This document shows, in pieces, positions 11,587 through 54,564 of a stretch of 64,000 nucleotides of DNA. Position numbers and translations under genes: made by a program. Every line of letters begins with the position of its first letter. Position 1 is the stretch's first letter. The notes under the pieces were generated by a model that saw nothing but the letters and a program-made list of their open reading frames with translations, was not told the origin of the DNA and made no database searches. The DNA is from an uncultured Candidatus Saccharibacteria bacterium (lineage in GTDB: Bacteria; Patescibacteriota; Minisyncoccia; GCA-002772825), in NCBI GenBank assembly GCA_964560655.1, contig CAZLLR010000001.1:36202-100201 (forward strand), given 5' to 3'.

Positions 11587-11597
11587 TTTAAAAATGA

Positions 11598-12512: not shown

Positions 12513-12637
12513 AATGAAATCATTATACCGTAAATAACAAAATTGTTTAAACTGACTATGTGGACACGCAACTTTTTACTAGTTTTTCCACAGCTTAGAT
12601 TAGAATAATTTAAATACTGCATGTTAATATAAAGTAT

Positions 12638-12787: not shown

Positions 12788-12817
12788 TTAGAGATGAGGT
12801 ACTGTTTTAACAAATAA

Positions 12818-12855
12818 GAATTACATATTTAATTACGTAATTAAATATGTAATTC
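12818..12855. repeat. 38-bp perfect palindrome GAATTACATATTTAATTAC|GTAATTAAATATGTAATTC
   Basis: Exact inverted repeat, AT-only stem, 20 nt upstream of the -35 of the rpoB promoter. Confidence 0.6.
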
Positions 12856-12874
12856 TTTAAGTGTATAACGAGAT

Positions 12875-12902
12875 TTGACAGATTTTGAGGGGTGTGTATA
12901 AT
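12875..12902 (+). promoter_or_regulatory. sigma70-type promoter upstream of rpoB (TTGACA-16-TGTATAAT)
   Basis: Consensus -35 and extended -10 about 170 nt upstream of the rpoB start. Confidence 0.6.
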
Positions 12903-13073
12903 AGTAAACAATATCTAAATGATTGAGTTTTTGAAGCAACATGATAGAAAACAATATAATTAATAGCTTTATTAGTGATCGCTTATCATTTAACTAACTA
13001 AATAAGAAGGAATCTACAAAAATCCCCTGAAGAATAAGGCGGAAGGGCGATTTTTGTATTTTTTTGTTTTTTT

Positions 13074-16286: not shown

Positions 16287-16291
16287 ATTTT

Positions 16292-19200
16292 ATGGAAAAA
16301 AAAGTTACAGATTTTGATTCAATAATGTTAAAACTTGCTTCTCCAGAAAAGATTCTTTCGTGGTCTCATGGTGAAGTTACCAAACCTGAAACTATAAACT
16401 ATAGGACTCAGCGCTCAGAGCGTAACGGCCTCTTCGATGAGAGAATATTCGGACCAGAGAAAGACTATGAATGTTACTGTGGTAAATATCGACGTATTCG
16501 CTATAAAGGTATTATTTGTGAAAAATGCGGGGTGGAAGTAACACGTTCTATAGTAAGAAGAGAGAGGATGGGACACATAACACTCGCTGTGCCAGTCTCT
16601 AATATCTGGTTTGTACGAAATATCCCATCAAGACTTGGCTTATTGCTAGACCTTTCAATAGCTAACCTTGAAAAAGTTATTTACTTTGCCGGATACATCA
16701 TCACTAAAGTAAACGAAGAAGAGAAAGCTAAGTTAAGGAGCGACTTAGAGAAGGAATATAAATCTAAAGTCAAAGAAAAAGCAAAGGGAGAAGAGAAAGA
16801 TACTCTTAAAGAGGCTCTAACGGTAGCAAGGAAGGAACTTGATTCAATCAAGCAAAATAAAGTATTGAGTGAAGTTGAATACTATAACCTTAGCCTCAAA
16901 TATGGAGAATTACTTGAGGTAGAAACTGGGGCAGAAGGTCTTTATAATATTTGTAAAAAAATAGATCTTAAGGTTCTCCGCGAAGAGTCTGAGTCTAAAC
17001 TCGATGCGTCTTCCGCCTCAGAAAGGGTAAAAAACCAAAAAAGATTAAAACTAGTACGATCTATGGAGTTAGCTAGTGTCCGTCCTGAGTGGATGTTTCT
17101 AACAGTAATACCTATCACTCCTCCAGCCTTGCGTCCAATGGTTGCTCTTGATGGGGGGAGACACGCCACTTCTGATGTAAATGACCTCTACAGACGAGTT
17201 ATAAACAGAAACAACCGACTTAAGAAGCTTATAGACTTAAGGGCTCCTGATGTAATCTGCCGAAACGAGAAAAGAATTCTCCAAGAGGCGGTAGATGCTC
17301 TAATAGACAACTCCGCTAGGTCTTCACAGAAAACAGCAATATCTCAAGCTCAGAGACGCCCGCTTAAGTCACTCGCTGATATGCTAAGAGGGAAACAGGG
17401 TAGGTTCCGTCAAAATCTTCTTGGAAAACGAGTTGATTATTCAGGGCGAAGTGTTATCGTCGTCGGACCAGAGCTTAAGCTTCACCAATGTGGACTGCCT
17501 AAACATATGGCACTAGAACTTTTCCGTCCGTTTGTTATCTCAAAATTGATCTCAAGAGATATGGCGTTTAACATAAGAGGATCAAACAAACTTATAGATG
17601 AGAAGACTCCGGAAGTTTGGGCTATACTAGAAGAGATTATTAAAGAAAAATATGTACTCTTGAACCGTGCTCCTACTCTACATCGTCTTGGCATCCAAGC
17701 TTTCCAACCGATACTTATAGAAGGAAATGCCATCCAAGTGCACCCTCTGGTATGTACTGCCTTCAACGCAGACTTCGACGGAGACCAGATGGCTGTACAT
17801 GTGCCTCTATCTGACAAAGCGCAAAAAGAAGCAAAAGAGATTATGCTCTCATCTAGAAATCTTCTAAACCCAGGAGACGGTAAGCCCGTCGTACAACCTT
17901 CTCAGGATATAGTACTAGGCTGTTTCTGGATGACACAAATTGTCGCTGGGTCAAAAGGCGAAGGAATGATATTCTCAAGTCCAAACGAGGCTATTACTGC
18001 CTTTGACTTCGGACATGTAGATCTTAAAGCCAAAATACAACTTTTAGGCACAGATAGTCCTACATATAAAGCCTTTAAAGGTAAATTACTTGAAACTTCT
18101 GTAGGGAGACTTCTTTTTAACAGCGTTCTCCCTACAGATTTTCCCTTTGAGAATGAAGAGATGTCTAAGAAAAAGCTTTCATCTATCACCGATGAGCTTA
18201 TACTTAAATACGGTTCTGATAAAACACCTGAAATATTAGATAAAATAAAAAACTTTGGATATAAATACGCCACTAAGTCAGGAATTAGTTGGGGTTACGA
18301 AGACCTCATCATCCCTAAAGACAAACCTGCCCTAGTCAAAAAATCAAGGGATAAAGTCGCTTTAATTGAAGAACATTTTAAGAACGGACTTCTTACTGAC
18401 AATGAACGTTACCAAAAAATTATTGAAATATGGGAAGAAGTAAGAAATGAATTAGATAAGCTAGTTCCTGAAGGATTAGACAAACTTGGACCAGTCCATG
18501 TGATGGTCACCTCAAAGGCCAGAGGAACTTGGGCTCAGATTGCCCAGATGATCGGTATGAAAGGACAAGTGGTGAATCCGGCTGGTAGAATTATCGATTT
18601 TCCTGTTCTCTCAAGTTATAAAGAGGGGCTTACTGTGCTTGAATACTTCATCTCCACTCATGGCGCAAGAAAAGGGCTTGCTGACACAGCCTTAAAGACA
18701 GCTAAAGCCGGATATCTTACAAGGAGGCTTGTTGACGTAGCTCAAGATGTAGTAGTAAACGAATATGACTGCAAAACATCAAAAGGCGTAATAATAAAGA
18801 GGGAAGACGCTATAAAGAAAAATAAAGACCTTTCTGTTTATCTTGATGGACGAATCTTATTAAGCTCACTTAAGGTAACTGTGGATGGAGAAACTCGTGA
18901 ATTTAAAAAGAACCATTTGATAAATAGCGAGGAATCAAAATTTATCGACGCGGGCAATATGCCCGAGGTTATAGTTCGTTCTCCTATCAACTGCGAAGCT
19001 CCTACTGGAGTATGCCAACTTTGCTACGGAAGAGACTTGGGGAGAAACGACTTGGTAAAGATCGGTGCCACAGTAGGGGTAGTGGCAGCTCAAGCCATTG
19101 GTGAGCCTGGAACTCAGCTTACAATGAGAACTTTCCATCTTGGGGGAGTAGCAGGAAGAGGAGATATAACTCAAGGTTTGCCTCGCGTAGAGGAAGTCTT

Positions 19201-21762: not shown

Positions 21763-23037
21763 ATGAAAAAAAATATGAATAAGAAAAAAACTCTAATTAA
21801 AAAGACAAAAGTGACAAAAACAAAAAAAGTGAAGAAGGTAGCCAAGCCTAAAAAAGTAGCGAAAAAAGTTACTAAAGAGAAAAAGATCTCTAGCGTTAAA
21901 AAAACTGCAAGTGTAGCTAAAAAACCTACCCCAACAAAAAGAAGAAAAAAACTATCTAAGGAGGAGACAAGTGAAAAGATAGATATTCTTATGAAAAAAG
22001 GTTCTCTTAGGGGTTTCGTGACTTATGCTGAGATACTAAAAGAATTCCCTAACATAGAAAACGATATTATGTTCCTAGACGAACTATATCAAGACTTGCA
22101 AAGAAGCGGAATAGATATCTTAGAAGGTGGAGTAACAGGCCTCTTGGAGGAACCGAAAGTTGAAAAGAAATCAAGAAAAGCCCCAAAGAAAATGTTTTCA
22201 TCTTCTTCTGAGCTTGATCCTATCCAGATGTATCTTAAAGAGATTGGAAGGATTTCACTTCTAAACACAGAAGAAGAAAGGAAGCTCGCTAAAGCTTCAA
22301 TGGAAGGAGACGAAGAATCAAAGACAAAGCTTGCTCAAGCAAACCTAAGGCTTGTAGTGTCCATTGCGAAAAGATATGTAGGAAGAAGCCCAGACCTCAC
22401 CTTACTTGACCTTATACAAGAGGGGAATATTGGACTTTTTAAGGCAGTGGAAAAATTCGACTGGACTAAGGGATATAAATTCTCAACTTACGCCACTTGG
22501 TGGATAAGACAAGCAGTGACAAGAGCCTTGGCAGACCAAGCACGTACTATCCGCATACCCGTTCATATGATAGAGACTATAACTAAATTTAAACAGAACT
22601 CCAGAAAGCTAGCTCGCGAACTTGGTAGAGAGCCATTAGACGAAGAGGTAGCAGCAGAGATGGGGCTAGATGTCAGTAAGATTCATCATATAAAGAAGAT
22701 CTCTCAAGGAACTCTTTCTCTTGAGGCGCCTATTGGAGACGATTCTGAAAAATCAACTCTTAGTGAATTTGTCGCTGATGACAAAATACTCTCACCTGAG
22801 CAACAGACATCACAAAGGATACTAAAGGATCAGATAGATGAGATAATAGCCGATCTTTCTCCAAAGGAACAGAAGATACTAAAGATGCGTTTCGGCTTAG
22901 ATGACGGAGTAAGCCATACCTTGGAAGAAGTAGGAAGAGAATTTGGCGTTACCAGAGAGCGAATTAGGCAAATCGAATCTAAAGTTATAGAGAAGATACG
23001 CCAGCATGAAAAGATAAAACAATTAAGGAGTTACTAA
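21763..23037 (+). CDS. rpoD: RNA polymerase sigma factor RpoD (sigma-70) with Lys/Ala/Pro-rich N-terminal tail
   Basis: Regions 1.2-4 ([47 protein letters not shown]). The first 65 aa or so are a histone-H1-like [12 protein letters not shown] tract. Confidence 0.9.
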
Positions 23038-23115: not shown

Positions 23116-23187
23116 TCCGGCGTAGCTCAGTGGTAGAGCAGTTGACTGTTAATCAATTGGTCGCAGGTTCGAATCCTGCCGCCGGAG
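23116..23187 (+). tRNA. tRNA-Asn (anticodon GUU)
   Basis: 72 nt. Acceptor TCCGGCG/CGCCGGA, D-arm GCTCAGTGGTAGAGC, anticodon loop CTGTTAA, T-loop TTCGAAT. U1-A72 as in E. coli tRNA-Asn. Confidence 0.8.
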
Positions 23188-23245
23188 CAGAATAGACACT
23201 CTTCAAAATTTTGTAATTTATAGTGAAAAAAGCTACAATTTATCT

Positions 23246-23821: not shown

Positions 23822-23858
23822 AAAAGGGGTTAGCATTATAGCTAACCCCTTTCTCATA
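23822..23858. terminator. bidirectional hairpin AAAGGGGTTAGC...GCTAACCCCTTT
   Basis: 12-bp stem between convergent genes (23246 on plus, 23870 on minus). Confidence 0.6.
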
Positions 23859-23869
23859 AACCATACCTC

Positions 23870-24070
23870 TTACTTCGGGTTCCATGGGAGTTTTTTCCAC
23901 TGTCCTCCGGGAATCCTGACTGTGGTGTGCCCATTATTGACCTCACCTTTCGGATCTATATTGAAGGAATCGTGGACGTCTCCTCCAATTGGTGATGAGC
24001 CTGCCGGCTGTATGCCAAAATTGGGCTTTAAGGGCTTGAAGCCTGAGTTTCCTCCATTCATGATAATCAC
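23870..24070 (-). CDS. 66-aa Gly/Pro-rich small protein P1 (MIIMNGGNSGFKPLKPNFGIQPAGSSPIGGDVHDSFNIDPKGEVNNGHTTVRIPGGQWKKLPWNPK)
   Basis: Minus strand. AGGAGGTG SD 7 nt before the ATG, sigma70 promoter (TTGACT-17-TATTCT) upstream, terminator downstream. Paralogous to the 26410 ORF. Confidence 0.55.
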   Translation of the reverse strand: MIIMNGGNSGFKPLKPNFGIQPAGSSPIGGDVHDSFNIDPKGEVNNGHTTVRIPGGQWKKLPWNPK

Positions 24071-24127
24071 CTCCTTTCTATTGTCAGCAGTAAAACTGAT
24101 TAAAAAATAAAAAACTTATCTATTTTC

Positions 24128-24156
24128 AGAATAACAATCTTTTTAAAATTAGTCAA
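24128..24156 (-). promoter_or_regulatory. sigma70-like promoter for the 23870..24070 gene (TTGACT-17-TATTCT on minus strand)
   Basis: -35 at plus coordinates 24151-24156 and -10 at 24128-24133, with exactly 17-nt spacing. Confidence 0.5.
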
Positions 24157-24251
24157 TATATTTTTATATATTAAAAACTAACCAAATAGGTTCGAACATC
24201 GTCTAGTGATTTGACAAAATAGCACTTTAATGCTATCTTTTTATTAGATAA

Positions 24252-24281
24252 AAACTAAACTTTGTACATAAAAAAAGGAGG
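24252..24281 (+). promoter_or_regulatory. conserved 5' leader motif (AAACTAAACTTTGTACATAAAAAAAGGAGG), instance 1
   Basis: Member of a recurring element with consensus TAAACTYYGTACTTTAAAAAGGAGG placed immediately 5' of the start codon. Preceded by TTGACA-17-TATCTT. Confidence 0.5.
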
Positions 24282-24288
24282 TGTGATT

Positions 24289-24522
24289 ATGAAGCTATCA
24301 GAAAAACGAATAAGGGAGATCGCATTTCTTTACCTCAAGTGGAAACTTGAGAGGGAAGGATTTTCTCTGCAGAATTTTCAAGATAGGGTGACTTTTACAT
24401 GCGGTGCGATAGGCATACCAGAAGAAGAAGGTATGGCGTTCGCAAAAGAAATTCTTACGCGTTTAGAAAAAAGATCTGTCGATGATGCGTTATCAGAGGC
24501 TAAGCCTGTCGGATCTGCGTAA
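24289..24522 (+). CDS. 77-aa hypothetical protein (MKLSEKRIREIAFLYLKWKLEREGF...)
   Basis: ATG at 24289 preceded by the GGAGGTG SD. The ORF-track start at 24262 lies inside the leader motif. Confidence 0.55.
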   Translation: MKLSEKRIREIAFLYLKWKLEREGFSLQNFQDRVTFTCGAIGIPEEEGMAFAKEILTRLEKRSVDDALSEAKPVGSA

Positions 24523-24541
24523 ATGTAACACTCTTTTTTAA

Positions 24542-24567
24542 AGACCACACAAAACATCGTGTGGTCT
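24542..24567. terminator. hairpin AGACCACAC-aaaacatc-GTGTGGTCT (bidirectional)
   Basis: 9-bp stem with A-run before and T/C-run after. The ACCACRC/GYGTGGT stem type recurs at 26623 and 29779. Confidence 0.6.
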
Positions 24568-24576
24568 TTCTTCTTG

Positions 24577-25500
24577 CTATTGTAAGAGTAGTTGTGCTAA
24601 TGAATCAATGACCCCTGGGTTGATATTATATTTAGGAAAGGAACCAAAAGGATTCACGTCTATCACAATTGGTTCTTCTCCTGAGATTACATCTATACAT
24701 AGATACTCTAGATTCAAATTTTTACAAAGAGACTTAAATTTACTCTCATACTCTTTAAAAATATCTGTTTCTATTTTAACTAATCTCGCTGAGCTTTTAT
24801 CTAGAGGATCGATTTCTTCTCTTTTATAAGAGAATATTTTATCTCCTATAATAAAGATTCTGTATTCCTCTCCCTTTATCTTATTTTGTAAAAGACAAGT
24901 CCCGAATATATCTATATGTTTTTTTAAATCAATATTTCCTTCAATAATATGAGGTGGATAAATATAAGCTGTATCCCCGCTATCTTCTTCAAAAGATAAC
25001 ATTTCTTTTAATTGAGTTTCTGCCTCAGGTAAAGCTTGAGAGAAATAACAATTTCCAAGACTTTTAGAAATCTGTGTTTCTGAAAATTTTAAGTCCATAT
25101 TATTTTTTCTTAATACAAAAGAATTTGGTGTTTTAATTCCACATTCCCTTACTTTTTTGAGAGAATAAAGTCTATTTCGAGCAAAGTGTGCATCTTTGAT
25201 ATTATTTATACTAATATCAGTAAACAAAAGTCCGAGAGTTTTGAAGAATTCAGTATTTTCTCTTTTTTGGTAATCTTCCGTATGTGGGCTAATCAAATCA
25301 TAAGGGTATCTAATAAATGCTCGGGTAAAGGTTTTTATTGGATGTTTTTCTACTTTTTCTCCAATGTAAACAAATTTATCATCAACAGCCTTGATATCTT
25401 TATCTGAAAAAATAAGATCTTCTTTTTTTGATATTTTTCGGATAGATTTTTCTAAATCTCCTAAACTATTATATGAGCAAGCGAGTAATATTTTATTCAT
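24577..25500 (-). CDS. ATP-grasp ligase, RimK-like
   Basis: EYRIFIIGDKIFSYKRE matches RimK DIRCLVVGDEVV, and LEYLCIDVISGEEPIVIDVNPFGSF matches the RimK/MdnC C-terminal E-x-N Mg-binding motif. 307 aa. Confidence 0.65.
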   Translation of the reverse strand: MNKILLACSYNSLGDLEKSIRKISKKEDLIFSDKDIKAVDDKFVYIGEKVEKHPIKTFTRAFIRYPYDLISPHTEDYQKRENTEFFKTLGLLFTDISINNIKDAHFARNRLYSLKKVRECGIKTPNSFVLRKNNMDLKFSETQISKSLGNCYFSQALPEAETQLKEMLSFEEDSGDTAYIYPPHIIEGNIDLKKHIDIFGTCLLQNKIKGEEYRIFIIGDKIFSYKREEIDPLDKSSARLVKIETDIFKEYESKFKSLCKNLNLEYLCIDVISGEEPIVIDVNPFGSFPKYNINPGVIDSLAQLLLQ

Positions 25501-25513
25501 AGAAATTAAAATA

Positions 25514-25541
25514 AACAGGAGCGGATAACCGCTCCTGTTTA
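25514..25541 (-). terminator. perfect hairpin AAACAGGAGCGG-ttat-CCGCTCCTGTTT followed by a T-rich run on the minus strand, 13 nt upstream of the ATP-grasp ATG
   Basis: 12-bp stem, and the U-tract is present only on the minus strand. Positioned like an attenuator of a transcript reading into the ATP-grasp gene. Confidence 0.5.
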
Positions 25542-25699
25542 AATACTTAATCTTTCCAAATTTTATTTGCCATAATAAATATTATTAATTAATAATGGAC
25601 TAATTTAATGCTATCATAAAGTATTTTTTCTATCAACTAGGTCAAATAATTACCTTTTTTACCCAAAACTGGACATCAATTCTAAATCCTTCTTAACCT

Positions 25700-25900
25700 C
25701 CATCCAGTTCAAAGTTCTGAATGTATCCAGTAGACGGAGCCAAACAGAACAGCCCTCCAATTTTCGTCCGCGCCGAGCGTGGGGCGTGCGATGGGAGTGG
25801 AATTACCACGCACTCGGTGTGGAAGTGGTCGAGCTTTGTTCGAAATAAGTTCGGATTTCATCATATAGACGGAGTCTCGTAAAATAATCTCAAAATTAAA
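25700..25900. ncRNA. candidate structured RNA / GC-rich leader element (unassigned)
   Basis: Local GC-rich block in an AT-rich genome (CCGCGCCGAGCGTGGGGCGTGCGATGGGAGTGG...). Internal complementary segments CCGAGTGCGTGG / CCACGCTCGG. The only overlapping ORF (25709..25939, minus) starts with TTG, has no SD, and has atypical composition. Confidence 0.25.
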
Positions 25901-26022
25901 ATATTCTATATCAGAGGTTACATATTCATCTATGTTCAAGCCACTTGTCTTTTTTCATATATATGATTTAATGAAAATAGATATATTGGTCTTTAAAAAT
26001 CGTAAAGAAGGAGGTGAGTAAG

Positions 26023-26364
26023 ATGGCAGATTTTAAAGTGAAACTTATACAAATTCCCATTATTCCAAGTTTGAGTCCCGGAACACCGGAGTTTAGAGAA
26101 GATAGACGCGCTCATATGTCCACATTAATGTCTATCTATGAGATGAGTAAGAAGGAAAGGACTTGCCCTAGATGCGGTGAAAATAAAAGTCCAACTAAAC
26201 CCCAATGTTTCTCTTGTCTTTCAACAAGTGTTCTAAGCCTCCATTACCTTTCCGAACAAACAAAGGAATGTAAATTTCACGGAATTAATTTCTGTCCAAA
26301 ATGCGACAAATTTATGCCCTCATTTATGAAAAAATGCCCCAGCTGCTTTTATAAAAGGAGTTGA
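26023..26364 (+). CDS. 113-aa Cys-rich small protein with four CxxC pairs, N-terminus MADF
   Basis: SD AAGGAGGTG. CPRC...CFSC and CPKC...CPSC. The first 30 or so nt including the SD are near-identical to the 26410 ORF. Confidence 0.55.
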   Translation: MADFKVKLIQIPIIPSLSPGTPEFREDRRAHMSTLMSIYEMSKKERTCPRCGENKSPTKPQCFSCLSTSVLSLHYLSEQTKECKFHGINFCPKCDKFMPSFMKKCPSCFYKRS

Positions 26365-26409
26365 ACTCTAAACATGCCTATACTGTATATAAAAAGGAGG
26401 TGAGTAGAA

Positions 26410-26606
26410 TGGCAGATTTTAGAGATAGCTTCCCTAAGGTAGACCCTCGCATGAAGATCAGATCTGATCTCGATAACCGTAAACACGGACCGCATCATGA
26501 TGTGTTCGTCCCTGTTTCTGGAGGAACTGATCAAACAAGGGTTACCCCCGATGGAGAGGTGATCGGCGGAACTACTAACATAGGAAAAGCCAAAAAGGAC
26601 TGGTAA
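26410..26606 (+). CDS. 65-aa small protein P2 (MADFRDSFPKVDPRMKIRSDLDNRKHGPHHDVFVPVSGGTDQTRVTPDGEVIGGTTNIGKAKKDW)
   Basis: SD AAGGAGGTG. N-terminus is duplicated from the 26023 ORF. The C-terminal PDGEVxGGTT...KK block is paralogous to P1 (23870..24070). Confidence 0.55.
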
Positions 26607-26617
26607 ATACCAATTCT

Positions 26618-26652
26618 AAAAAGGCCACATAAAAGATTGTGTGGCCTTTTTT
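26618..26652 (+). terminator. rho-independent terminator GGCCACA-taaaagatt-TGTGGCC + TTTTTT
   Basis: Stem plus T-run after the 26410 ORF. Confidence 0.65.
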
Positions 26653-26743
26653 ACCCCAAACAGGTTCAAATATCGTCACCACAAGAGTACTTCCATTTTC
26701 TAATTCGCAATCTCAAAGAAAATTAGGTCGCCAGTAGGCGGAG

Positions 26744-26772
26744 TTGACCTTCTTAAGTATATATTATATAGT
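26744..26772 (+). promoter_or_regulatory. promoter TTGACC-17-TATAGT
   Basis: Same architecture as the promoters at 29225 and 31909. Upstream flank carries CCAGTAGGCGGAG. Confidence 0.45.
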
Positions 26773-26783
26773 ATTTTTAGAAT

Positions 26784-26810
26784 TAAACTAAACTTTGTAC
26801 TTTAAAGGGG
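26784..26810 (+). promoter_or_regulatory. conserved 5' leader motif, instance 2 (TAAACTAAACTTTGTACTTTAAAGGGG)
   Basis: See the 24252 entry. Confidence 0.5.
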
Positions 26811-26817
26811 TGAGATT

Positions 26818-27177
26818 ATGACAATGGAAGAAGACACAGTAGATCGTAGTCCGAGAAGAATAGATCGAACAAGAATTTTTAAAGGTAACTTCGCTCGAAA
26901 AATACTTAAAAGATCAAGATATTCTCCCATAGAAGTTGAAAACTTCATGATAAAGAATAAAGTTTACTGGAATGGAGATCTCGAACTTAAGGAAAACGGT
27001 GTCCATAGTCATTGCTACTACACAGAGATGTTCTGGAGTATCATGAAGAGAATACCTACTGGCGTCCATGAAATATCTGAAATAGAATCATTCAAGCCAA
27101 GGAGACCAATTGTTTTACTACTTAGATTCTTCGGTTCTTATCTGTATTTAACAAAGCTAAAGAAATCTTTATCTTAA
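26818..27177 (+). CDS. 119-aa hypothetical protein
   Basis: ORF with the conserved leader/SD. No recognisable domain. Confidence 0.5.
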   Translation: MTMEEDTVDRSPRRIDRTRIFKGNFARKILKRSRYSPIEVENFMIKNKVYWNGDLELKENGVHSHCYYTEMFWSIMKRIPTGVHEISEIESFKPRRPIVLLLRFFGSYLYLTKLKKSLS

Positions 27178-27196
27178 CCCATAAGGAGATAGACAA

Positions 27197-27379
27197 ATGA
27201 CTCAGAAGGAAGGAGCACTTATAGATAAAGACGTCAAGCACCCAAGCCACGATACACGATCCTCAGATGCGTCAACTTATGACGAGGTATGCAAAAAATG
27301 CGGAGCAACAGATAAAGTCCCTGGTGGTTGGGGACGGCTTGCCCTACTTTGTCCTAAAAACTCTAAAGCTATAGCTTAA
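27197..27379 (+). CDS. 60-aa small protein with CxxC...C (zinc-ribbon-like)
   Basis: SD AAGGAG 8 nt upstream, and a terminator after it. Confidence 0.5.
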   Translation: MTQKEGALIDKDVKHPSHDTRSSDASTYDEVCKKCGATDKVPGGWGRLALLCPKNSKAIA

Positions 27380-27395
27380 GTCAAGGTGGTTGATC

Positions 27396-27428
27396 GCTCA
27401 CAAGACATATTCTTGTGAGCATTTTTTT
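27396..27428 (+). terminator. rho-independent terminator GCTCACAAG...CTTGTGAGC + TTTTTTT
   Basis: 9-bp stem plus T7. Confidence 0.65.
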
Positions 27429-27733
27429 ATAAAGATAATTTTTTCTACCCAAATAAATAAGCCCGAGTATTGTCACCATAAGAGGACTTCTATCTTTATA
27501 CTCCTTCTAATCACTAAGGATTAGGTCACCCAGTAAACAGAGTCAGTTAAAATAGTCTTATTTTTTAGGCTATTTTATTTTATCTCATATGAGATTTTGA
27601 CGGGCGTTAGAGGTTATAATATTTGTGTTATACTTTTTTATATGAAGAAGAAAACTCAAATATTATTTATACATGGTGGTATGACCTTTAAGAAACAGAA
27701 AGATTATTTACATCATTTAAAAACTAAAAAAAT

Positions 27734-29224
27734 ATGGACGATAATATAACGATACTTACAAAAACAGATTTCAAAGAATACCTTTTGTGCAATAAGTGTC
27801 TTTGGCTTAAAAAGAAATGCCCGGAGGAATATATTCAAGGTGACTTTTCTCTTTTCCTTAAAAAACTTATAAAAGACGGTTATGAAGTTGAATCATATGT
27901 ACAAAAACTTTTTCCTGATGGTGTCTTTCTCTCAGGCGACAAAGAAGCATTGATTTCGAGAACAAAAGATTTACTTACAGGAGATAAACCAATCTTCCAA
28001 GCAACCTTTGAAACAGATAGTGGCCTTTTTGCTAAAGTCGATATTCTTGATTTTAATAAAAAGACAAATAAGTGGGACTTGTACGAAGTAAAAGCAAGTT
28101 CAGAAATAAAGACGGATATAAAACACAACCACGTTAAAGACGTTATATTTCAGACAATCGTTGCAGAAGACTCAGGAGTTGATATTGGTGATAGTTACAT
28201 TATCTATATAAATAGGGAATATAGGCGCAGTGGTGACATAGACCTTGATAAGTTATTTATAGTTGAGAATATTGTCGAAAAAGTAGTTGAGCAAAAGGAG
28301 TTAGTACGAGGAGAGATACAATGTGCGTTAGACATGCTTAAGAAAGATGATGTGTCTCTCGATGGATGTGACTGTTTATACAAAAGCCATGGCCAACGGT
28401 GCGATTCTTTTTTTAAGTTTAACCCAAATGTACCCGAGTACTCTATTCACCACATTGTCACAGGAAATAAGCTAAAGACACTTTTAGAAGAAGGACTGTT
28501 AGATATAAAAGATATACCAGAAGATTTTGAACTTACTGATATTCAAAGAGATAAGGTTTCCCTGCAAAAAATAGGTAAACCTCTTATAGATAAAATTGCA
28601 ATAAAACAAACCTTGTCAGAGTTAGTGTTTCCCATATACTTTCTAGACTATGAAACATATGGATCTCCCATACCTCTTCTTGATGGCTATAAGACGAATC
28701 AGCAAGTCGTATTTCAAGTATCATTACATGTGTTAAGAGAAGATGGAACATTGGAACACTTTGAGTATTTAGCAGATAAGCTAGATAGTGCCACGAGAGG
28801 GCTTGTAGATATGCTAAAGGCTAATATAGGCGATGTGGGGAGCGTCGTTGTATGGTATGAGAGCTTTGAGAAGGGGAGAAATGCAGAATTAGCCGAATTA
28901 CACCCAGAAGATAAAGAATTTATGGAAGATTTAAACAATAGAGTGTTTGATCTTATGAAAGTTTTTAAGAAAGATTACTTGCATCCAGATTTCCAAGGTA
29001 GCGCCTCAATAAAGAAAGTTCTTCCTGTTCTTTTGCCAGAGCTGTCATATAAAAATTTGGACATACAAAACGGTACGATGGCGCTTAGTGAATGGGAGAA
29101 GATAATTAAAGGAAAGTTGAGTAAAGAAGAGGCTGAAAAAATAAAGCAAAATTTACTAAAATATTGTGAGCTCGACACACTTGCTATGGTAGAGATATAT
29201 AAGAAGTTAGTTATGTTAGCATAA
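27734..29224 (+). CDS. DUF2779-type protein: N-terminal Cas4/RecB-like PD-(D/E)xK nuclease fold plus C-terminal RNase-H-like region
   Basis: D...DLYEVK nuclease motif (VDILDF...WDLYEVKAS), Cys cluster (CNKC...C, CDCLYKSHGQRC), C-terminal FLDYET acidic motif. About 500 aa as in the DUF2779 family. Family assignment is from memory. Confidence 0.6.
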   Translation: MDDNITILTKTDFKEYLLCNKCLWLKKKCPEEYIQGDFSLFLKKLIKDGYEVESYVQKLFPDGVFLSGDKEALISRTKDLLTGDKPIFQATFETDSGLFAKVDILDFNKKTNKWDLYEVKASSEIKTDIKHNHVKDVIFQTIVAEDSGVDIGDSYIIYINREYRRSGDIDLDKLFIVENIVEKVVEQKELVRGEIQCALDMLKKDDVSLDGCDCLYKSHGQRCDSFFKFNPNVPEYSIHHIVTGNKLKTLLEEGLLDIKDIPEDFELTDIQRDKVSLQKIGKPLIDKIAIKQTLSELVFPIYFLDYETYGSPIPLLDGYKTNQQVVFQVSLHVLREDGTLEHFEYLADKLDSATRGLVDMLKANIGDVGSVVVWYESFEKGRNAELAELHPEDKEFMEDLNNRVFDLMKVFKKDYLHPDFQGSASIKKVLPVLLPELSYKNLDIQNGTMALSEWEKIIKGKLSKEEAEKIKQNLLKYCELDTLAMVEIYKKLVMLA

Positions 29225-29253
29225 TTGACTTTTTTAAGTATCTCTTGTAAGAT
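29225..29253 (+). promoter_or_regulatory. promoter TTGACT-17-TAAGAT
   Basis: Near-identical 29-mer to the promoter at 31909 (TTGACTTTTYTRARTATMTCTTGTAARAT). Confidence 0.5.
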
Positions 29254-29270
29254 ATATTTAGATAGAAAGA

Positions 29271-29303
29271 TAAACTCCGTACTTTATAACTTAAAAAGGA
29301 GGA
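29271..29303 (+). promoter_or_regulatory. conserved 5' leader motif, instance 3 (TAAACTCCGTACTTTATAACTTAAAAAGGAGG)
   Basis: See the 24252 entry. Confidence 0.5.
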
Positions 29304-29310
29304 AATCAAA

Positions 29311-29466
29311 ATGAGTGACACAGATCATATTTGCTTAACAGATAAGATACTAGAGAAATTTTTCTCACACAATGCCTCAAGAGAAGACACGGATCGGATA
29401 ACAAAAGATATTGAGGATTGTGTTTTCTGTAAAAGAAAATACATTAAAAGAGGACTTAAGAAGTGA
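29311..29466 (+). CDS. 51-aa small protein (MSDTDHICLTDKILEKFFSHNASREDTDRITKDIEDCVFCKRKYIKRGLKK)
   Basis: ORF read by eye (under 60 aa, so absent from the track). SD GGAGG 8 nt upstream. TGA stop. Confidence 0.45.
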   Translation: MSDTDHICLTDKILEKFFSHNASREDTDRITKDIEDCVFCKRKYIKRGLKK

Positions 29467-29480
29467 TGTGATCCTTAACA

Positions 29481-29505
29481 TAAATTCTGTACTCTAAAAA
29501 GGAGG
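29481..29505 (+). promoter_or_regulatory. conserved 5' leader motif, instance 4 (TAAATTCTGTACTCTAAAAAGGAGG)
   Basis: See the 24252 entry. No separate promoter here, so probably co-transcribed with the 29311 ORF. Confidence 0.45.
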
Positions 29506-29512
29506 TTCCATA

Positions 29513-29755
29513 ATGAACAATGATTCTAAAATTTTCTTGCTTGGTGTTGTTTGTAGCTTATTGCAGATAGTCGGACTTGCTTTAATTATAGCAAGTCCAT
29601 ATTTACCACAATCCATTTCCGTTATTATTGGAATTAGTGGATTTGCTGCGATAGTTAAACTTTTTCTCCCAAGCAAAGCGGATTTTGAAGGAAAAATCCT
29701 TCGACCAGCTGCAGCATTAGCAGGATTTGGGATAATAATTATCTCTTTAATTTAA
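29513..29755 (+). CDS. 80-aa membrane protein (3 TM)
   Basis: SD GGAGG. Hydrophobic throughout. Confidence 0.55.
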   Translation: MNNDSKIFLLGVVCSLLQIVGLALIIASPYLPQSISVIIGISGFAAIVKLFLPSKADFEGKILRPAAALAGFGIIIISLI

Positions 29756-29778
29756 TATCATAATAAAATATTTTAAAA

Positions 29779-29810
29779 ACCACGCAAAATATCGCGTGGT
29801 TTTCTCTTTT
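29779..29810 (+). terminator. rho-independent terminator ACCACGC-aaaatatc-GCGTGGT + TTTCTCTTTTT
   Basis: Same stem family as the hairpin at 24542. Confidence 0.65.
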
Positions 29811-29859
29811 TATATCATCTATATTTTATTATTCGTGTAGTGAATTAGAAGACAAGAAG

Positions 29860-29892
29860 CAACGGCTACCGAGTTTTTTTCGGTAGCCGTTG
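29860..29892. terminator. hairpin CAACGGCTACCGA-gttttttt-CGGTAGCCGTTG
   Basis: 13-bp perfect stem directly downstream of the msrB-domain stop codon (minus strand). AACGGCT stem family. Confidence 0.6.
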
Positions 29893-29932
29893 TAAATTAG
29901 GCTATCTAGTAGTAGACAAAACTAATTAGAGA

Positions 29933-30466
29933 TCAGAGAAATAAGTAAAGATACTCTTCATAACCTTCACTCTCCATCCCTTCCCTAGGTATAAATCTAA
30001 GGGCTGCGGAATTCATACAATATCTAACCTTATCATTTTCAATCGGTCCATCTAGGATAATATGCCCTAAGTGAGAATCGGCATATTTACTACGGATCTC
30101 CGTATGAGGGATGATCAATTTATAATCTTTTCTTTCTCTAACAAAATCTTTATCTATCGGCTTGAGAAAGCTGGGCCACCCTGTTCCTGAGTCAAATTTA
30201 TCTACTGAAGAAAATAATGGCTCCCCAGAGACTATATCTACATATATACCATCTTCATGATTGTCCCAATATTCATTTTGAAAGGCCGTCTCCGTACTTT
30301 CTTTCTGAGTAACTTTGTACTGTAGGGGAGTAAGAGTACTTCTTAATACTTCATCGATCGGTTTTTGAAAATTTTCCCATTCATTAGTATTAGATACAGA
30401 TTTTCCAATCTTTTCAAATAGATTGTCGTATGTGCCCTCACCCCAAATTGACTCTATAAACTTATC
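29933..30466 (-). CDS. msrB: peptide-methionine (R)-S-oxide reductase MsrB domain, in frame with upstream msrA and lacking its own start codon
   Basis: [10 protein letters not shown]...[11 protein letters not shown] catalytic block and GWPSF. Zinc-less type (no CxxC pairs). 177 codons beginning immediately after the msrA TGA. No ATG/GTG/TTG before the domain core. Confidence 0.6.
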
Positions 30467-31102
30467 TCACCCCGAACCCTCTCTGTAATACTTATATCTA
30501 ATAGGATTCTTCTTATAATAATTTTGATGGTATTCTTCAGCTAACCAAAATGCTCCAGCCTTCTCAATACTCGTTGATATAGGTTTATCAAAGATTTTTC
30601 TTTCTTCAACTTGTTTTATTACTCCTTCTGCAATAGATTTCTCTTCATCTGTCTGGTAATAGACTGCTGAAGTATATTGATATCCACGATCGTAGAATGA
30701 CCCTTCATTATCCGTCGGGTCAGTATGCTTTAATAGATACAAAACAAGATCATGGTAATTAGTCTTAGTAGGATCATAGGTTACCTTAATCATCTCTCTG
30801 TGTCCGGTGTCGCCGGAAGAGACTTGATTATAACTCGGCTCTTCTACACCACCCCCCATATACCCAGATACAACATCTATAACTTCAGGTAATTTTTCAT
30901 AATCACTTTCAGTACACCAGAAGCAACCACCAGCAAAGTAAGCAACAGCTTCTCCCTTATTTGTAGTCGAAGTATCGATATTACTAGGCGCTGTTTTGCC
31001 TTTATACCAGCCGTAACCCCAAATACTTACCACTAGTATCCCTATAAGGACGATTATAAAAAATAGTTTAATCATATGTCTTGTCATTATAACACTACAC
31101 AC
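30467..31102 (-). CDS. msrA: peptide-methionine (S)-S-oxide reductase MsrA, membrane-anchored
   Basis: GGCFWC active-site motif. N-terminal TM helix (IKLFFIIVLIGILVVSIWGY). Stop is a TGA at plus-coordinates 30467-30469. Confidence 0.8.
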   Translation of the reverse strand: MCSVIMTRHMIKLFFIIVLIGILVVSIWGYGWYKGKTAPSNIDTSTTNKGEAVAYFAGGCFWCTESDYEKLPEVIDVVSGYMGGGVEEPSYNQVSSGDTGHREMIKVTYDPTKTNYHDLVLYLLKHTDPTDNEGSFYDRGYQYTSAVYYQTDEEKSIAEGVIKQVEERKIFDKPISTSIEKAGAFWLAEEYHQNYYKKNPIRYKYYREGSG

Positions 31103-31310
31103 TTATGATAAATAGATGACATGGAAAGAGCTAATCAAGATAACAAGCCTGCCAGTAGCAGTCACTTCTCTTTATTGCCTCGGTCCGCTTATCTTTGTAC
31201 TTCTAGCTTTGCCAGATGACGGAGACAGATGAGCCGTTCGCCTGTAAAGATTTCTATCTCAACATATGCCGGATATTTGAGAGTACTCGATCCTATGATA
31301 TACTTTTTAT

Positions 31311-31823
31311 ATGAAAAAAGGATTCATAAATGTATTGTTTATAATAGTAATTATAGTAATTGCCGGTGGTATTGGATATTTTATTTCTAATACTAACCGA
31401 GATATTGATAGTACTGAAGGAGTCAATGATATAACAACATCTTTAGATAAGACTATAGACCTAAGTAATAAGGGATTAAAAAGTATCCCTTATTATATAT
31501 TCGATCAGACAAACATAGAAGAACTCAATGTCTCTAATAATTCTTTGACAGGGGCTATACAAGCAGAGATAGGACACTTATCTAAACTAAAAATACTCAA
31601 TGCCAAAAATAATTTAATGACGGGAGTGCCAGCTGAGATCGGACAGCTACAAAACTTAGAAATCCTCGATCTCTCTAACAATCAACTTACGGGACTACCT
31701 AATGAACTAGGAAGTCTTAGAAAACTTAAAATATTAAACCTCTCTGGCAACCAATACTCAAACCAAGACCTTAAAGAGATCCGCGCTAAACTCCCAAAAA
31801 CAGTAAATATAATCCTAAATTAA
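31311..31823 (+). CDS. leucine-rich-repeat protein with N-terminal TM anchor
   Basis: At least five 23-24-residue LRRs of LxxLxxLxLxxNxLTGxxPxExGxL type (plant-specific-like). Confidence 0.7.
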   Translation: MKKGFINVLFIIVIIVIAGGIGYFISNTNRDIDSTEGVNDITTSLDKTIDLSNKGLKSIPYYIFDQTNIEELNVSNNSLTGAIQAEIGHLSKLKILNAKNNLMTGVPAEIGQLQNLEILDLSNNQLTGLPNELGSLRKLKILNLSGNQYSNQDLKEIRAKLPKTVNIILN

Positions 31824-31908
31824 AAAGACTTTAATACTGCCTACTGGCGACCTAATTTTAGACGACTAAAGAGAGTAGAAGCACGAAGGTGCCCTTGTAG
31901 TGATGATA

Positions 31909-31937
31909 TTGACTTTTCTGAATATATCTTGTAAAAT
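31909..31937 (+). promoter_or_regulatory. promoter TTGACT-17-TAAAAT
   Basis: Paralogous to the promoter at 29225. Confidence 0.5.
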
Positions 31938-31952
31938 ATGTTTAGAAAAAAT

Positions 31953-31977
31953 AAACTTCGTACTTTAAAAAAGGAGC
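31953..31977 (+). promoter_or_regulatory. conserved 5' leader motif, instance 5 (TAAACTTCGTACTTTAAAAAAGGAG)
   Basis: See the 24252 entry. Confidence 0.5.
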
Positions 31978-31984
31978 TATAACT

Positions 31985-32932
31985 ATGAGACAGAAAGTTA
32001 TTCTATTCGCTGGACCAGGAAGAGTTGCTGAGCCTACAATAGATAAATTAATACCATACGGGTGGAAGGCTGTAGTCAGTTATAGAGAAGGGCATAGAAA
32101 AGAAAGTGGCTCTCAAAAGACTGTAGAAACTTTAATCAATAAATATGGTACTGATGTTGTCTATGGTATCCCGGCAGAAATATCAGCGTACCCTGAAGCA
32201 CATAGATTCATAACAGAGGCCATGGCACACTATCCAGATATTGAAGAAATTGCCTTAATCAACGTAGCTTCTCAATATCCACCTAATCCATTTTTTGATA
32301 GAGCAACCAAAAGTGAGCTAATCAAAAAAGACTGGCGATACTTTTTATCCAACTTCTGCGTGATGCAGAACGTGACAAGGGTATTTCTAAGGCAGCTTGA
32401 AGGGAAAAATATAAAAGCAAATATCATAAGCTTCGGAGACAGTAGGGCTTATGAATATTTTTACCCTGACATCATACATCCTTTCTATTTCTCTAAAGAT
32501 AGAAAGGATAAAGATATCATCAACCTTTCTTTAAAAGAAGCTAAGGTGTTAGGATTAGATCTCCTAAGAAAATTGGGGGTAATTGGAAGGGATTGTAACC
32601 CTTATATGCTCTCAAAACTCTTGATAATGTATGCTACAAGAGAGCTTGCCCTTAAGCACGCTGGAGGTAACACTCAGATAAATGTCCTTGCTCCTGGAAT
32701 AATGGGCACATCTCCAAATGATAAACCCGGAGAAGCTGAGGCCTTTGCAAGAAAAACTACAATCTTACAGAGGATAGGAGGCTTCACCTCCGCTGCTGAT
32801 AAAATCGCCCACTTAGTAAGTGACAACTCTTATACTACTGGGGAGATAATCACAATAGATGGAGGTAAGCACCTGATATGGCTTGAAGAGCAAGAAATGA
32901 AGCGAAATAGAAGAAACTTAAATTTAGCTTGA
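31985..32932 (+). CDS. SDR-family NAD(P)-dependent oxidoreductase (enoyl-reductase-like)
   Basis: N-terminal Rossmann-type FAGPGRVAEP and C-terminal APGIMGTSP...ITGEIITIDGG. Confidence 0.65.
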   Translation: MRQKVILFAGPGRVAEPTIDKLIPYGWKAVVSYREGHRKESGSQKTVETLINKYGTDVVYGIPAEISAYPEAHRFITEAMAHYPDIEEIALINVASQYPPNPFFDRATKSELIKKDWRYFLSNFCVMQNVTRVFLRQLEGKNIKANIISFGDSRAYEYFYPDIIHPFYFSKDRKDKDIINLSLKEAKVLGLDLLRKLGVIGRDCNPYMLSKLLIMYATRELALKHAGGNTQINVLAPGIMGTSPNDKPGEAEAFARKTTILQRIGGFTSAADKIAHLVSDNSYTTGEIITIDGGKHLIWLEEQEMKRNRRNLNLA

Positions 32933-33018
32933 AAGCAATGCCCGATTCTCTTTAAAAGGAGTCGGGCATTTTATAATAAAAAGTATTATTTATCCTATTT
33001 TGCGGTATAATTAAAAAT

Positions 33019-33180
33019 ATGAGAGAAAGACCACTTATATGGGCAGGACTTTTTATAGGTTCTTTCATCGGTAGTTATATACCGATGTTTTGGGGAGGAA
33101 GTCTCTTATCTATAACATCTGTGCTGTTAAGCGCCATCGGCGCTTCTATCGGGGTGTGGATAGGCTACCAGCTTACGTAA
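33019..33180 (+). CDS. possible 53-aa Gly-zipper membrane peptide
   Basis: ORF read by eye, TATAAT 9 nt upstream (leaderless?). Overlaps the 3' end of the convergent MTase gene by 8 nt. Weak call. Confidence 0.25.
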   Translation: MRERPLIWAGLFIGSFIGSYIPMFWGGSLLSITSVLLSAIGASIGVWIGYQLT

Positions 33181-33862
33181 GCTTCTTCATATAAGCTAGC
33201 CAATAATTTCGCTTATAGCTCTGGCCTTTAAAACGATTGTAGTTAGTCTTCTTCAGTAATTTCTGTATTTTAAAATATTTTGAATATATCTCTGTAAAAT
33301 CTGTTTGGGAAAAAACTCTCTCTGTAAGCTTCATATCTGTATTAATATAAGTGTCATATTCTACACCAGGACTTTGCTTTAATAAGTTCTTAACATTCTT
33401 ATCTCCTTCTTTACACAAGGCTCTCACAAAAAAATGCCCTCTTGTCTTCAATACACGATAAACCTCCCTTAGGTAGATTGCACGTTCTTTCTCGTCTAGT
33501 GAGTTAGAGGACATAACATCAATAACTAAGTCATAAGAGCAGTCTTCAAATGGATAAGGTACGCCGATATTGGCTTCTAGATAACTGACTTTGATACCCA
33601 TCTCTTTTGCCCGAGACCGAGCAATCTTTATAGCAGTAGGGGACACTTCTAACCCTGTGACACTATTTCCCATCTGAGCTAGGTAATTGGCATTATTGCC
33701 AACCCCTGAACCAAGGTCAAGAATGTCCAGTTTGTCTATATCTGTGCCTTCATCTTTCTTTAGGAACTTAACGTATTGCTGAAGATCCTTACGCGGACCA
33801 CTACCCTTCGCTAAAAGCTGAGGGTTCTTATATTCTTTTTCCCATGCTGATATTTGAGCCAT
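33173..33862 (-). CDS. class I SAM-dependent methyltransferase
   Basis: Motif I LDLGSGVGNNANYL and acidic motif II (DLVIDV). Confidence 0.75.
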   Translation of the reverse strand: MAQISAWEKEYKNPQLLAKGSGPRKDLQQYVKFLKKDEGTDIDKLDILDLGSGVGNNANYLAQMGNSVTGLEVSPTAIKIARSRAKEMGIKVSYLEANIGVPYPFEDCSYDLVIDVMSSNSLDEKERAIYLREVYRVLKTRGHFFVRALCKEGDKNVKNLLKQSPGVEYDTYINTDMKLTERVFSQTDFTEIYSKYFKIQKLLKKTNYNRFKGQSYKRNYWLAYMKKLT

Positions 33863-43800: not shown

Positions 43801-43840
43801 ACGAACGACTCATCCTCTAATTAGAGGATGAGTCGTTCGT
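43801..43840. repeat. 40-nt perfect palindrome ACGAACGACTCATCCTCTAA|TTAGAGGATGAGTCGTTCGT
   Basis: Exact inverted repeat between the 42915 gene and the cspA promoter region. No T-run on either side. Confidence 0.55.
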
Positions 43841-54482: not shown

Positions 54483-54564
54483 TTAATATAAAGAGACGCT
54501 TAGATAGTTAAATATTTTTTTATTTACTATTTTACACTCAGGATTTTAATGATATAATAGAAGC

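Follow-up and report, generated by a model that had tools for sequence, protein, structure and literature searches.

Diverged copies of one promoter and leader module precede unrelated small genes beside tRNA-Asn in a candidate phyla radiation bacterium

How do small genes with unrelated products come to stand behind almost the same promoter and leader in one short stretch of a chromosome? This question is raised by a region of an uncultured Candidatus Saccharibacteria bacterium, located directly 3′ of a tRNA-Asn gene in a stretch of 64,000 nucleotides (positions 36,202 to 100,201 of contig CAZLLR010000001.1, assembly GCA_964560655.1), which was analyzed as a whole and is called the window below. 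An initial annotation described the region as an accessory island of cassette-like small genes, and proposed that one regulatory module had been repeatedly recruited or duplicated in front of them, as in integron-like or gene-cassette systems. Our analysis revealed that 4 units of the island (P2; P6–P7; P9–P10; and the gene of an SDR-family oxidoreductase) are led by diverged copies of one module, and that 3 units (P2; P4–P5; and P9–P10) end in diverged copies of one hairpin. The proposed recruitment or duplication agrees with these data, the modules being ~78–82% identical and the proteins behind them sharing nothing. The locus is of the kind already known from putative mobile promoters (PMPs) and promoter-early stem-loop (PeSL) cassettes, and is not a new mobile-element system.

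A repeat search of the window revealed three 44-nt copies of a promoter family (at 26743, 29224, and 31908), which form part of a promoter and 5′ untranslated region (5′UTR) module of 62–66 nt that occurs 3 times (26744, 29225, and 31909); a fourth, weaker copy is located at 24231, and what may be a decayed one at 33278. The module consensus includes (i) a sigma-70-type promoter, TTGACY-N17-TAWRRT, the promoters scoring 9–10 of 12, from which transcription is predicted to start ~7 nt downstream of the −10 box; (ii) an A/T-rich 5′UTR of ~40–50 nt, which bears a 16-nt leader box, TAAAYTYYGTACWYWA; and (iii) a Shine-Dalgarno (SD) sequence 6–9 nt before the ATG, which is strong (7–10 nt) in all modules except M2, where it has 5 nt (GGGGTGAG). 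Self-BLAST of the 64 kb aligned M3 with M5 over 66 nt (29224–29289 versus 31908–31970; 81.8%, E 1e-8), M2 with M5 over 63 nt (26744–26806 versus 31909–31969; 77.8%), and M1 with M5 over 43 nt (24250–24292 versus 31946–31988; 81%). The similarity extends from the −35 hexamer to the leader box or the SD, is even over the whole 62–66 nt with the spacer positions included, and reaches at most 4 nt into the coding sequences.

The leader box has 5 copies on the plus strand with at most 2 mismatches (24256, 26789, 29271, 29481, and 31952), and the only other match at this threshold in the window lies on the minus strand within the P6 gene (26951–26966). A hidden Markov model (HMM) of the leader found exactly these 5 sites (E 2e-6 to 5e-5), the next match having an E value of 1.7, and an HMM of the full module recovered its 3 seeds (E 1e-14 to 2e-16), with M1 (E 0.04) and the possible relic at 33278 (E 0.13) following as weaker matches. 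Variation within the box is limited to a few positions, namely, 2 adjacent pyrimidine (Y) positions in all copies, besides which M1 and M4 have single changes. Compared with shuffled controls, the motifs are enriched, as shown by 2 matches to the 29-mer promoter consensus at up to 3 mismatches versus 0.00 expected, and they do not stand upstream of most genes; neither of the 2 refuting outcomes named in the initial annotation was obtained. The parts of the module are nested: the leader box occurs 5 times, the start region plus leader 4 times, and the whole promoter 3 times. The recurring promoter family and the conserved leader of the initial annotation were both recovered by these searches, and the near-identical layout that it ascribed to most units applies to M2, M3, and M5, whereas the unit at 24211 shares the transcription-start region and the leader but not the promoter spacer. 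The non-palindromic dispersed repeats that self-BLAST detected in the window are all located at 24.2–32.0 kb, except for 2 weak matches between coding sequences elsewhere (E 0.016 and 0.002) and 1 match between hairpins (E 0.049).

The modules belong to 5 small units (Table 1), in which module and hairpin are found together (P2; P9–P10), module alone (P6–P7; SDR), or hairpin alone (P4–P5). Eight SD-led small open reading frames (ORFs) were counted, with P6 having a weak SD, rather than the ten or more of the initial annotation (P1, P2, P4, P5, P6, P7, P9, and P10). Clustering of 15 billion sequences at 90% identity leaves every small ORF a singleton, and Pfam, NCBIfam, PHROGs, and PADLOC assigned no family to them; P6 has no homologue among 5.8 billion cluster representatives, and P2 has 3 distant small homologues with 38–44% identity. 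Codon-usage log-odds trained on core genes are, for P1, P2, P5, P6, P7, P9, and P10, positive in no frame but the annotated one, and are weakest for P4. The module-driven products P2, P6, P9, and SDR belong to different families or to none, and the downstream proteins are without mutual similarity, as the initial annotation had supposed for most of these ORFs. Because the modules have diverged by only ~20% and the proteins show no homology, modules rather than whole cassettes appear to have been duplicated and joined to different genes. A further duplication is seen at the starts of P4 and P5, where the initiation region, consisting of the SD and the first 5 codons, is 88% identical over 34 nt (26005–26038 versus 26391–26424).

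Table 1. Features of the island and its surroundings (window coordinates)
Feature	Position	Strand	Description
tRNA-Asn (GTT)	23116–23188	+	ARAGORN; Rfam 77 bits; 79 nt after rpoD; left edge of the variable region
Unit 1			M1 (24211), P2, T1
Unit 2			own promoter, P4, P5, T2
Unit 3			M2 (26744), P6, P7, unrelated hairpin
Unit 4			M3 (29225), P9, M4 (leader box and SD only), P10, T3
Unit 5			M5 (31909), SDR, unrelated hairpin
M1	24211–24288	+	promoter TTGACA-N17-TATCTT with different spacer; shared start region and leader box (24256–24271); SD; HMM E 0.043
M2	26744–26817	+	promoter TTGACC-N17-TATAGT; leader box 26789–26804; weak SD GGGGTGAG; HMM E 5e-14
M3	29225–29310	+	directly after the DUF2779 stop codon; TTGACT-N17-TAAGAT; leader box 29271–29286; SD; HMM E 2e-16
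M4	29481–29496 (leader box)	+	leader box and SD between P9 and P10, without promoter; leader HMM E 6e-6
M5	31909–31984	+	TTGACT-N17-TAAAAT; leader box 31952–31967; SD AAAGGAG; HMM E 1e-14
Possible decayed module copy	33278–33317	+	antisense in the 3′ end of the methyltransferase gene; HMM E 0.13, borderline
Decayed promoter copy	31807–31833	-	continues from inverted el copy F into the 3′ end of the LRR gene
P1	23870–24061	-	63 aa; SD AAAGGAGGTGA; own promoter TTGACT-N17-TATTCT; coding score positive in this frame only
P2	24289–24522	+	77 aa; small family of ~70-aa proteins; coding score 0.21
ATP-grasp protein	24577–25500	-	307 aa; native-style, without SD
P4	26023–26364	+	113 aa; two zinc-ribbon-like Cys4 motifs
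P5	26409–26606	+	65 aa
P6	26818–27177	+	119 aa; orphan; weak SD
P7	27197–27379	+	60 aa
DUF2779/Cas4-like nuclease	27734–29224	+	496 aa; without SD
P9	29311–29466	+	51 aa
P10	29513–29755	+	80 aa; hydrophobic
SDR-family oxidoreductase	31985–32932	+	315 aa
Methyltransferase	33173–33862	-	generic S-adenosylmethionine (SAM)-dependent enzyme
T1	24540–24569	+	shared hairpin between P2 and the convergent ATP-grasp gene; predicted bidirectional terminator
T2	26620–26649	+	shared hairpin
T3	29776–29803	+	shared hairpin
el copy B	26659–26745	+	spacer between T2 and M2; core AAAATTAGGTCGCCAGTAGGC; profile E 2e-23
el copy C	27456–27546	+	profile E 6e-23
el copy F	31832–31912	- (inverted)	profile E 4e-22; self-BLAST 26669–26769 versus 31910–31807
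Partial el copy	59797–59823		profile search

The shared hairpin was found at 24543, 26623, and 29778, that is to say, at 3 sites (4 matches, with both strands of one site) versus 0.00 expected. Its alignment contains 11 stem pairs with 97% of the cells paired, and 3 of the 11 pairs carry double compensatory changes, which bears out the shared hairpin type of the initial annotation. These hairpins have perfect 11-bp stems followed by T runs and are of the intrinsic-terminator type, so that termination of transcription is their predicted function. The hairpins after P7 (27396–27420) and after SDR (32937–32970) are unrelated to them.

A further repeat of ~85 nt, which we designate el, is intergenic, lies between terminator and promoter, and is without a consistent reading frame. 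The 21 nt of its core are perfectly conserved, with 26719–26739 forming a perfect inverted repeat of 31839–31859. The possibility that these 21-nt repeats are the ends of an invertible segment was rejected, there being no recombinase and one orientation in the 3 assemblies, and because inversion would be without regulatory consequence. The el copies fold no better than shuffled sequences (z +0.4, +1.3, and −0.6). A short motif related to el, CCAGTAGRCGGAG, occurs again at 25727 and 31212. A G+C-rich patch of ~140 nt (25740–25880) is located in the A+T-rich intergenic DNA upstream of P4; it has no Rfam match and no convincing ORF, and its fold is no better than that of shuffled sequences. A structured or known RNA was rejected for the leader, el, and this patch, since Rfam was empty at the gathering threshold or at E ≤ 5 and the fold z-scores were not significant; over the window, Rfam returned nothing besides tRNA.

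The cassettes also differ from their surroundings in the way their translation would start. Most genes of the window have no SD. In 18 of the 61 genes a TATAAT-like box ends 4–12 nt, mostly 6–7 nt, before the start codon (for example, at 5488, 8707 on the minus strand, 23246, 31311, 33862 on the minus strand, 38801, 51137 on the minus strand, 54565, and 58513 on the minus strand). If transcription starts at the usual distance from the −10 box, genes with such a proximal box are predicted to be leaderless and, because the box sits mostly 6–7 nt before the start codon, leaderless mRNA is predicted to be the default of this genome. By contrast, an SD of at least 6 nt precedes 8 of the 17 island genes (P1, P2, P4, P5, P7, P9, P10, and SDR) versus 5 of the 44 genes outside the island (Fisher p = 0.0046). 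The genes of the NUDIX protein, the LRR protein, MsrA, and the methyltransferase, the gene fragment before the DUF2779 gene, and a 53-aa ORF at 33019 are of the leaderless type and have no SD, although they lie within the island; the ATP-grasp and DUF2779 genes are also without an SD. Since leaderless-style and SD-led genes stand side by side, the island is a mosaic in which native-style genes are interleaved with 5 small autonomous transcription units that are SD-led. The change of gene style that had been proposed to begin at the tRNA gene is borne out as this contrast between SD-led and leaderless genes, but it does not extend to the region as a whole. A search of the available literature on leaderless genes in Parcubacteria found nothing relevant; the coexistence in one genome of putatively leaderless core genes and long-leader, strong-SD cassettes is a point newly made here.

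Variable, lineage-specific DNA extends from 23.8 to 33.3 kb, 3′ of dnaG-rpoD-tRNA-Asn. The G+C content of the window is 36%, its genetic code is the standard one, and its context is chromosomal (dnaG, rpoD, rpoB/C, aminoacyl-tRNA synthetases, and murG). RpoD-based retrieval among GTDB genomes placed the organism in the Parcubacteria/Paceibacteria of the candidate phyla radiation (CPR), the nearest genome being Parcubacteria group bacterium CG10_big_fil_rev_8_21_14_0_10_38_31 (91% identity in RpoD, versus at most 68% in all others). The order dnaG-rpoD-tRNA-Asn is common to the window and this genome (hereafter, CG10), and the rpoD-tRNA-Asn linkage is also found in one further relative. After tRNA-Asn (12231–17684 of its locus), CG10 encodes an XRE protein, RadC, an Abi-like protein, a restriction-enzyme-like protein, and a Dcm methylase, which are unrelated to the cargo of the window and form a defence-type island at the same hotspot. 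No synteny downstream of tRNA-Asn is common to the window and any relative compared. The ATP-grasp protein belongs to a family of 27 members with variable neighbourhoods, and its orthologues in other contigs stand in loci without flanking cassettes. The initial annotation's view of an accessory or variable region accords with these differences; of the content that it cited, the methyltransferase is present but is a generic SAM-dependent enzyme and not a DNA methyltransferase.

Profiles of the module, leader, hairpin, and el found no further copy in ~1.6 Mb of related Paceibacteria loci and none in ~4 kb of extra flank of the same genome. DNA with 99.98% identity is present in a JGI metagenome (3300023548, contig Ga0256727_1000318) and among the Logan contigs of SRR9849936. 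One scan of a metagenome collection for the leader combined with an SD returned 4 single hits, all on unrelated contigs, which is close to the chance expectation; the collection evidently does not contain this organism.

The SDR protein has only 2 homologues among 5.8 billion proteins, with 50% identity in a contig that has archaeal (DPANN-like) features and no SDs, and with 42% identity in a Pacearchaeota genome. The region upstream of the homologue in the DPANN-like contig, which was the part read, contains neither module nor SD. This distribution suggests a transfer of the SDR gene between DPANN archaea and CPR bacteria, and the gene was probably acquired from archaea.

We consider it somewhat probable that the island owes its form to a portable expression module that was duplicated and recombined ("promoter propagation") in the variable region 3′ of rpoD-tRNA-Asn. 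All copies of the module would descend from one ancestral sequence, and local duplication and recombination with differing end-points would have joined them to unrelated, partly foreign or orphan coding sequences. Genes that come in without host-adapted signals would receive from the module both a promoter and SD-dependent initiation, in a genome whose predicted default is leaderless mRNA; the SDR gene is the clearest case, and the mechanism would probably resemble homologous exchange between the PeSL cassettes of T4-type phages, or promoter propagation. Several observations weigh against this explanation. Only 3–5 copies exist, all within 8 kb, and the restriction to the island holds for ~68 kb of this genome; the region has no excess of promoter-like hexamers (44 versus 42 expected); and no module-bounded polymorphism was found among the 3 assemblies, which are 99.98% identical across the island. 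Local segmental duplication followed by gene replacement is indistinguishable from active shuffling, and the retention of a leader box without a promoter in M4 also fits a selected cis-regulatory function. A bolder version, in which the modules constitute a PeSL-like shuffling system in an ultra-small CPR genome, appears improbable to us; there, recombination between promoter-leader copies and terminator copies would capture foreign or new ORFs and give them immediate SD-dependent expression against a background of putatively leaderless genes, and the island would be a nursery of orphan genes.

The module copies might instead have been kept alike by selection, if the promoter spacer and leader box bound a common regulator (a repressor at the promoter, or an RNA-binding protein or small RNA at the 5′UTR) and the genes formed a regulon. 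The leader box inside the P9–P10 operon, where no promoter accompanies it, the few variable positions of the box, the compensatory changes in the hairpins, which show selection on these elements, and the dyad symmetry of the M5 promoter (p = 0.016) are consistent with such a regulon. That symmetry is not significant in M1, M2, M3, and the relic (p 0.25–0.82), and an operator with dyad symmetry was rejected because it is significant in M5 alone. No copy was found beyond the 8-kb stretch in the 64 kb or in related genomes, the similarity is even over 62–66 nt rather than confined to discrete sites, and no DNA-binding regulator was recognized in the island, all of which make a regulon as the whole explanation rather doubtful. 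The readings are not mutually exclusive, since a propagated module can also be co-regulated. The clustering of the cassettes beside a tRNA gene, their absence from relatives, their small orphan ORFs with their own promoter and terminator, and a style of translation initiation unlike the host default could also indicate the remnant of a single phage, plasmid, or integrative element, which brought its own uniform early-type promoter, leader, and terminator and among whose genes native genes are now interspersed.

We regard this foreign remnant as unlikely. No tyrosine or serine recombinase, integrase, or transposase domain was found by Pfam in any ORF of the 64 kb, in line with the initial annotation, which had seen no integrase, and no phage or plasmid hallmark gene was found; PHROGs gave no match. 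The best match to the tRNA 3′ end in the island is 9 nt, which is at chance level, and copies of the tRNA 3′ end as att sites were rejected on this ground. No compositional break was detected at the island, the codon-usage scores of the small ORFs are host-like, and the SDR cargo points to an archaeal rather than a phage donor. IMG/VR contains no match to the leader, promoter, or hairpin and none to the P2 family, and its single match to the el core, in a coding region, is attributable to chance; PADLOC returned only the Cas4-like match of the DUF2779 nuclease, a generic methyltransferase match, and a marginal NUDIX match (E 0.006). A phage or defence origin was rejected because PHROGs was empty, PADLOC was sparse, and the IMG/VR pattern and protein scans were empty or at chance. 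To an integron-like, site-specific array, in which a recombinase would capture cassettes at the hairpins or el repeats as attC-like sites, we give hardly any credence, although the cassette-like layout, the conserved hairpins at 3 cassette 3′ ends, and the 21-nt el core conserved in both orientations recall such a system. The recombinase is missing, the hairpins with their perfect 11-bp stems and T tails are not the imperfect palindromes of 57–141 nt that attC sites form, the folding of el is unremarkable, the cassettes have their own promoters and lie on both strands, and no orientation variants exist in the 3 independent assemblies. The integron-like part of the initial annotation is contradicted by these observations and by the missing tRNA repeat. 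Relative to the regulon, the foreign remnant, and the integron-like array, a duplicated and recombined expression module remains the explanation that we favour.

Because decayed promoter copies overlap the 3′ ends of the LRR and methyltransferase genes in antisense orientation, the C-termini of both proteins seem to extend into former regulatory DNA. Homologues of the DUF2779 nuclease (40% identity) directly adjoin rpoD in 2 more distant Paceibacteria (at 11387–12859 and 11293–12807 of the respective loci, L009 and L012), and the nuclease may be an old neighbour of rpoD rather than cargo of the island. Upstream of its gene, a 35-aa ORF (27642–27749, plus strand; MKKKTQILFIHGG...), preceded by a promoter of the leaderless type, resembles the N-terminal part of a hydrolase that is truncated where the DUF2779 gene begins. 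At 29933–31102 on the minus strand, an MsrA domain runs to a TGA codon (30467–30469), beyond which an MsrB (SelR) domain follows without a change of frame and lacks an in-frame start for 116 codons; the in-frame TGA is also present in the JGI contig. Either a fused msrAB gene has recently acquired a nonsense mutation, or the stop codon is read through. An alternative genetic code was rejected here, because the long conserved core genes have no in-frame TGA.

A graspetide cluster, that is, an ATP-grasp cluster for ribosomally synthesized and post-translationally modified peptides (RiPPs), of the MvdC/MvdD type was considered for the ATP-grasp gene and rejected: the NCBIfam scores are 18–24 bits, far under the cut-offs of 230–475, the orthologue neighbourhoods have no common small ORF, and P1 and P5 are dissimilar by BLASTP. 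The own promoter and 5′ hairpin of this gene, located just before its start codon (25512–25541, within 25501–25637 on the minus strand), are conserved in an orthologue with 71% identity (318–443 of contig L090), with the loop changed. A likeness of P9 to the zf-HC2 anti-sigma domain was rejected, having no support in Pfam even at E ≤ 5. Elsewhere in the window, 3 sigma factors are encoded in the 64 kb, namely, RpoD (21763–23037), a group-2/3-like protein of 290 aa (46226–47098), whose gene is among the few outside the island to be SD-led, and an ECF sigma factor (55338–55838), whose gene is followed by that of a DUF5667 protein (55831–56814). Perfect or near-perfect intergenic palindromes of 38–60 nt (1267–1308, 12816–12857, 43801–43840, 47097–47134, and 54432–54491) have sequences unrelated to those of the island hairpins and probably serve as strong terminators in both directions.

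The gain and expression of genes in streamlined, symbiotic CPR bacteria are poorly understood, and the locus shows one concrete route, in which a ready-made module of promoter, 5′UTR, and ribosome-binding site, together with a terminator, is reused before unrelated genes, including an orphan gene and a likely archaeal one. The contrast between leaderless and SD-led genes could also aid gene callers and expression studies of CPR genomes.

Among known systems, integrons consist of intI, attI, and the promoter Pc, and their cassettes are promoterless, co-oriented, and ended by attC, an imperfect palindrome of 57–141 nt with R and L boxes. The island resembles an integron as an array at a variable locus whose genes are short, unrelated, and in many cases orphans. 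It differs in that the 64 kb contain no intI, attI, or attC, and the cassettes are neither promoterless nor co-oriented. Like tRNA-linked islands, the region is directly 3′ of a tRNA and its cargo is not what the nearest relative carries at that tRNA, a presence/absence difference that is characteristic of a tRNA-targeting integrative island; unlike them, it shows no integrase, no distal direct repeat of the tRNA 3′ end, and no compositional shift. Phage morons are autonomous promoter-gene-terminator units inserted between the genes of lambdoid phages and do not normally share one promoter, leader, and terminator family. The units of the island are likewise self-contained, with 1 or 2 small genes and an intrinsic-type terminator, and are wedged between genes of another style, but they have no prophage context.

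PMPs are sequences of 50–100 nt with at least 80% identity that stand upstream of coding sequences without mutual homology (Matus-Garcia et al. 2012, PMC3488235). When at least 50 nt with at least 80% identity within ~150 nt upstream of the start codons of at least 2 genes per genome were required, the pair M3/M5 (66 nt, 81.8%) reached these values, and M2/M5 (63 nt, 77.8%) and M1 (43 nt) were just below them. The coding sequences downstream are non-homologous and, with tRNA as the only Rfam match and no transposase in the window, the module is no known insertion sequence (IS) end, miniature inverted-repeat transposable element, or riboswitch; PMPs likewise are neither IS, riboswitch, nor known RNA family (PMC3488235). 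Compared with PMPs, (i) the island copies are clustered within 8 kb rather than dispersed; (ii) the unit also has a defined box in the 5′UTR and an SD, and a repeated family of terminators accompanies it; and (iii) the host is a CPR bacterium in which most genes are putatively leaderless.

The PeSL cassettes of T4-type phages, composed of a sigma-70 promoter, a stem-loop, and an SD, are located in hyperplastic regions upstream of ORFans, and recombination between these motifs shuffles genes (Arbiol et al. 2010, PMC2839356; Comeau et al. 2014, PMC4122927). The island differs from them in being part of a cellular chromosome rather than a phage, as PHROGs and IMG/VR indicate, and in having 3–5 copies rather than ~50 per phage. 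The PeSL stem-loop is embedded in the motif, whereas that of the island closes the preceding cassette at its 3′ end, ~100 nt away from the promoter; such a hairpin lies ~100 nt upstream of one module only (T2-el-M2), and T1 and T3 have no module behind them. Neither an indel between close relatives nor a mini-circle was observed here, so that recombination would have to be deduced from the arrangement of the copies. The 2 systems have other features in common: both have composite repeated motifs in the most plastic regions, directly upstream of small ORFans; a repeated sigma-70 promoter precedes an SD, after which a small ORFan begins (here the orphan P6, with the 5-nt SD of M2); the stop codon of the upstream gene abuts the motif (here M3 after DUF2779); and the way in which elements are mixed and matched suggests that copies have been exchanged. 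Should recombination between the modules indeed have occurred, it would extend a mechanism of T4-type phages to cellular chromosomes.

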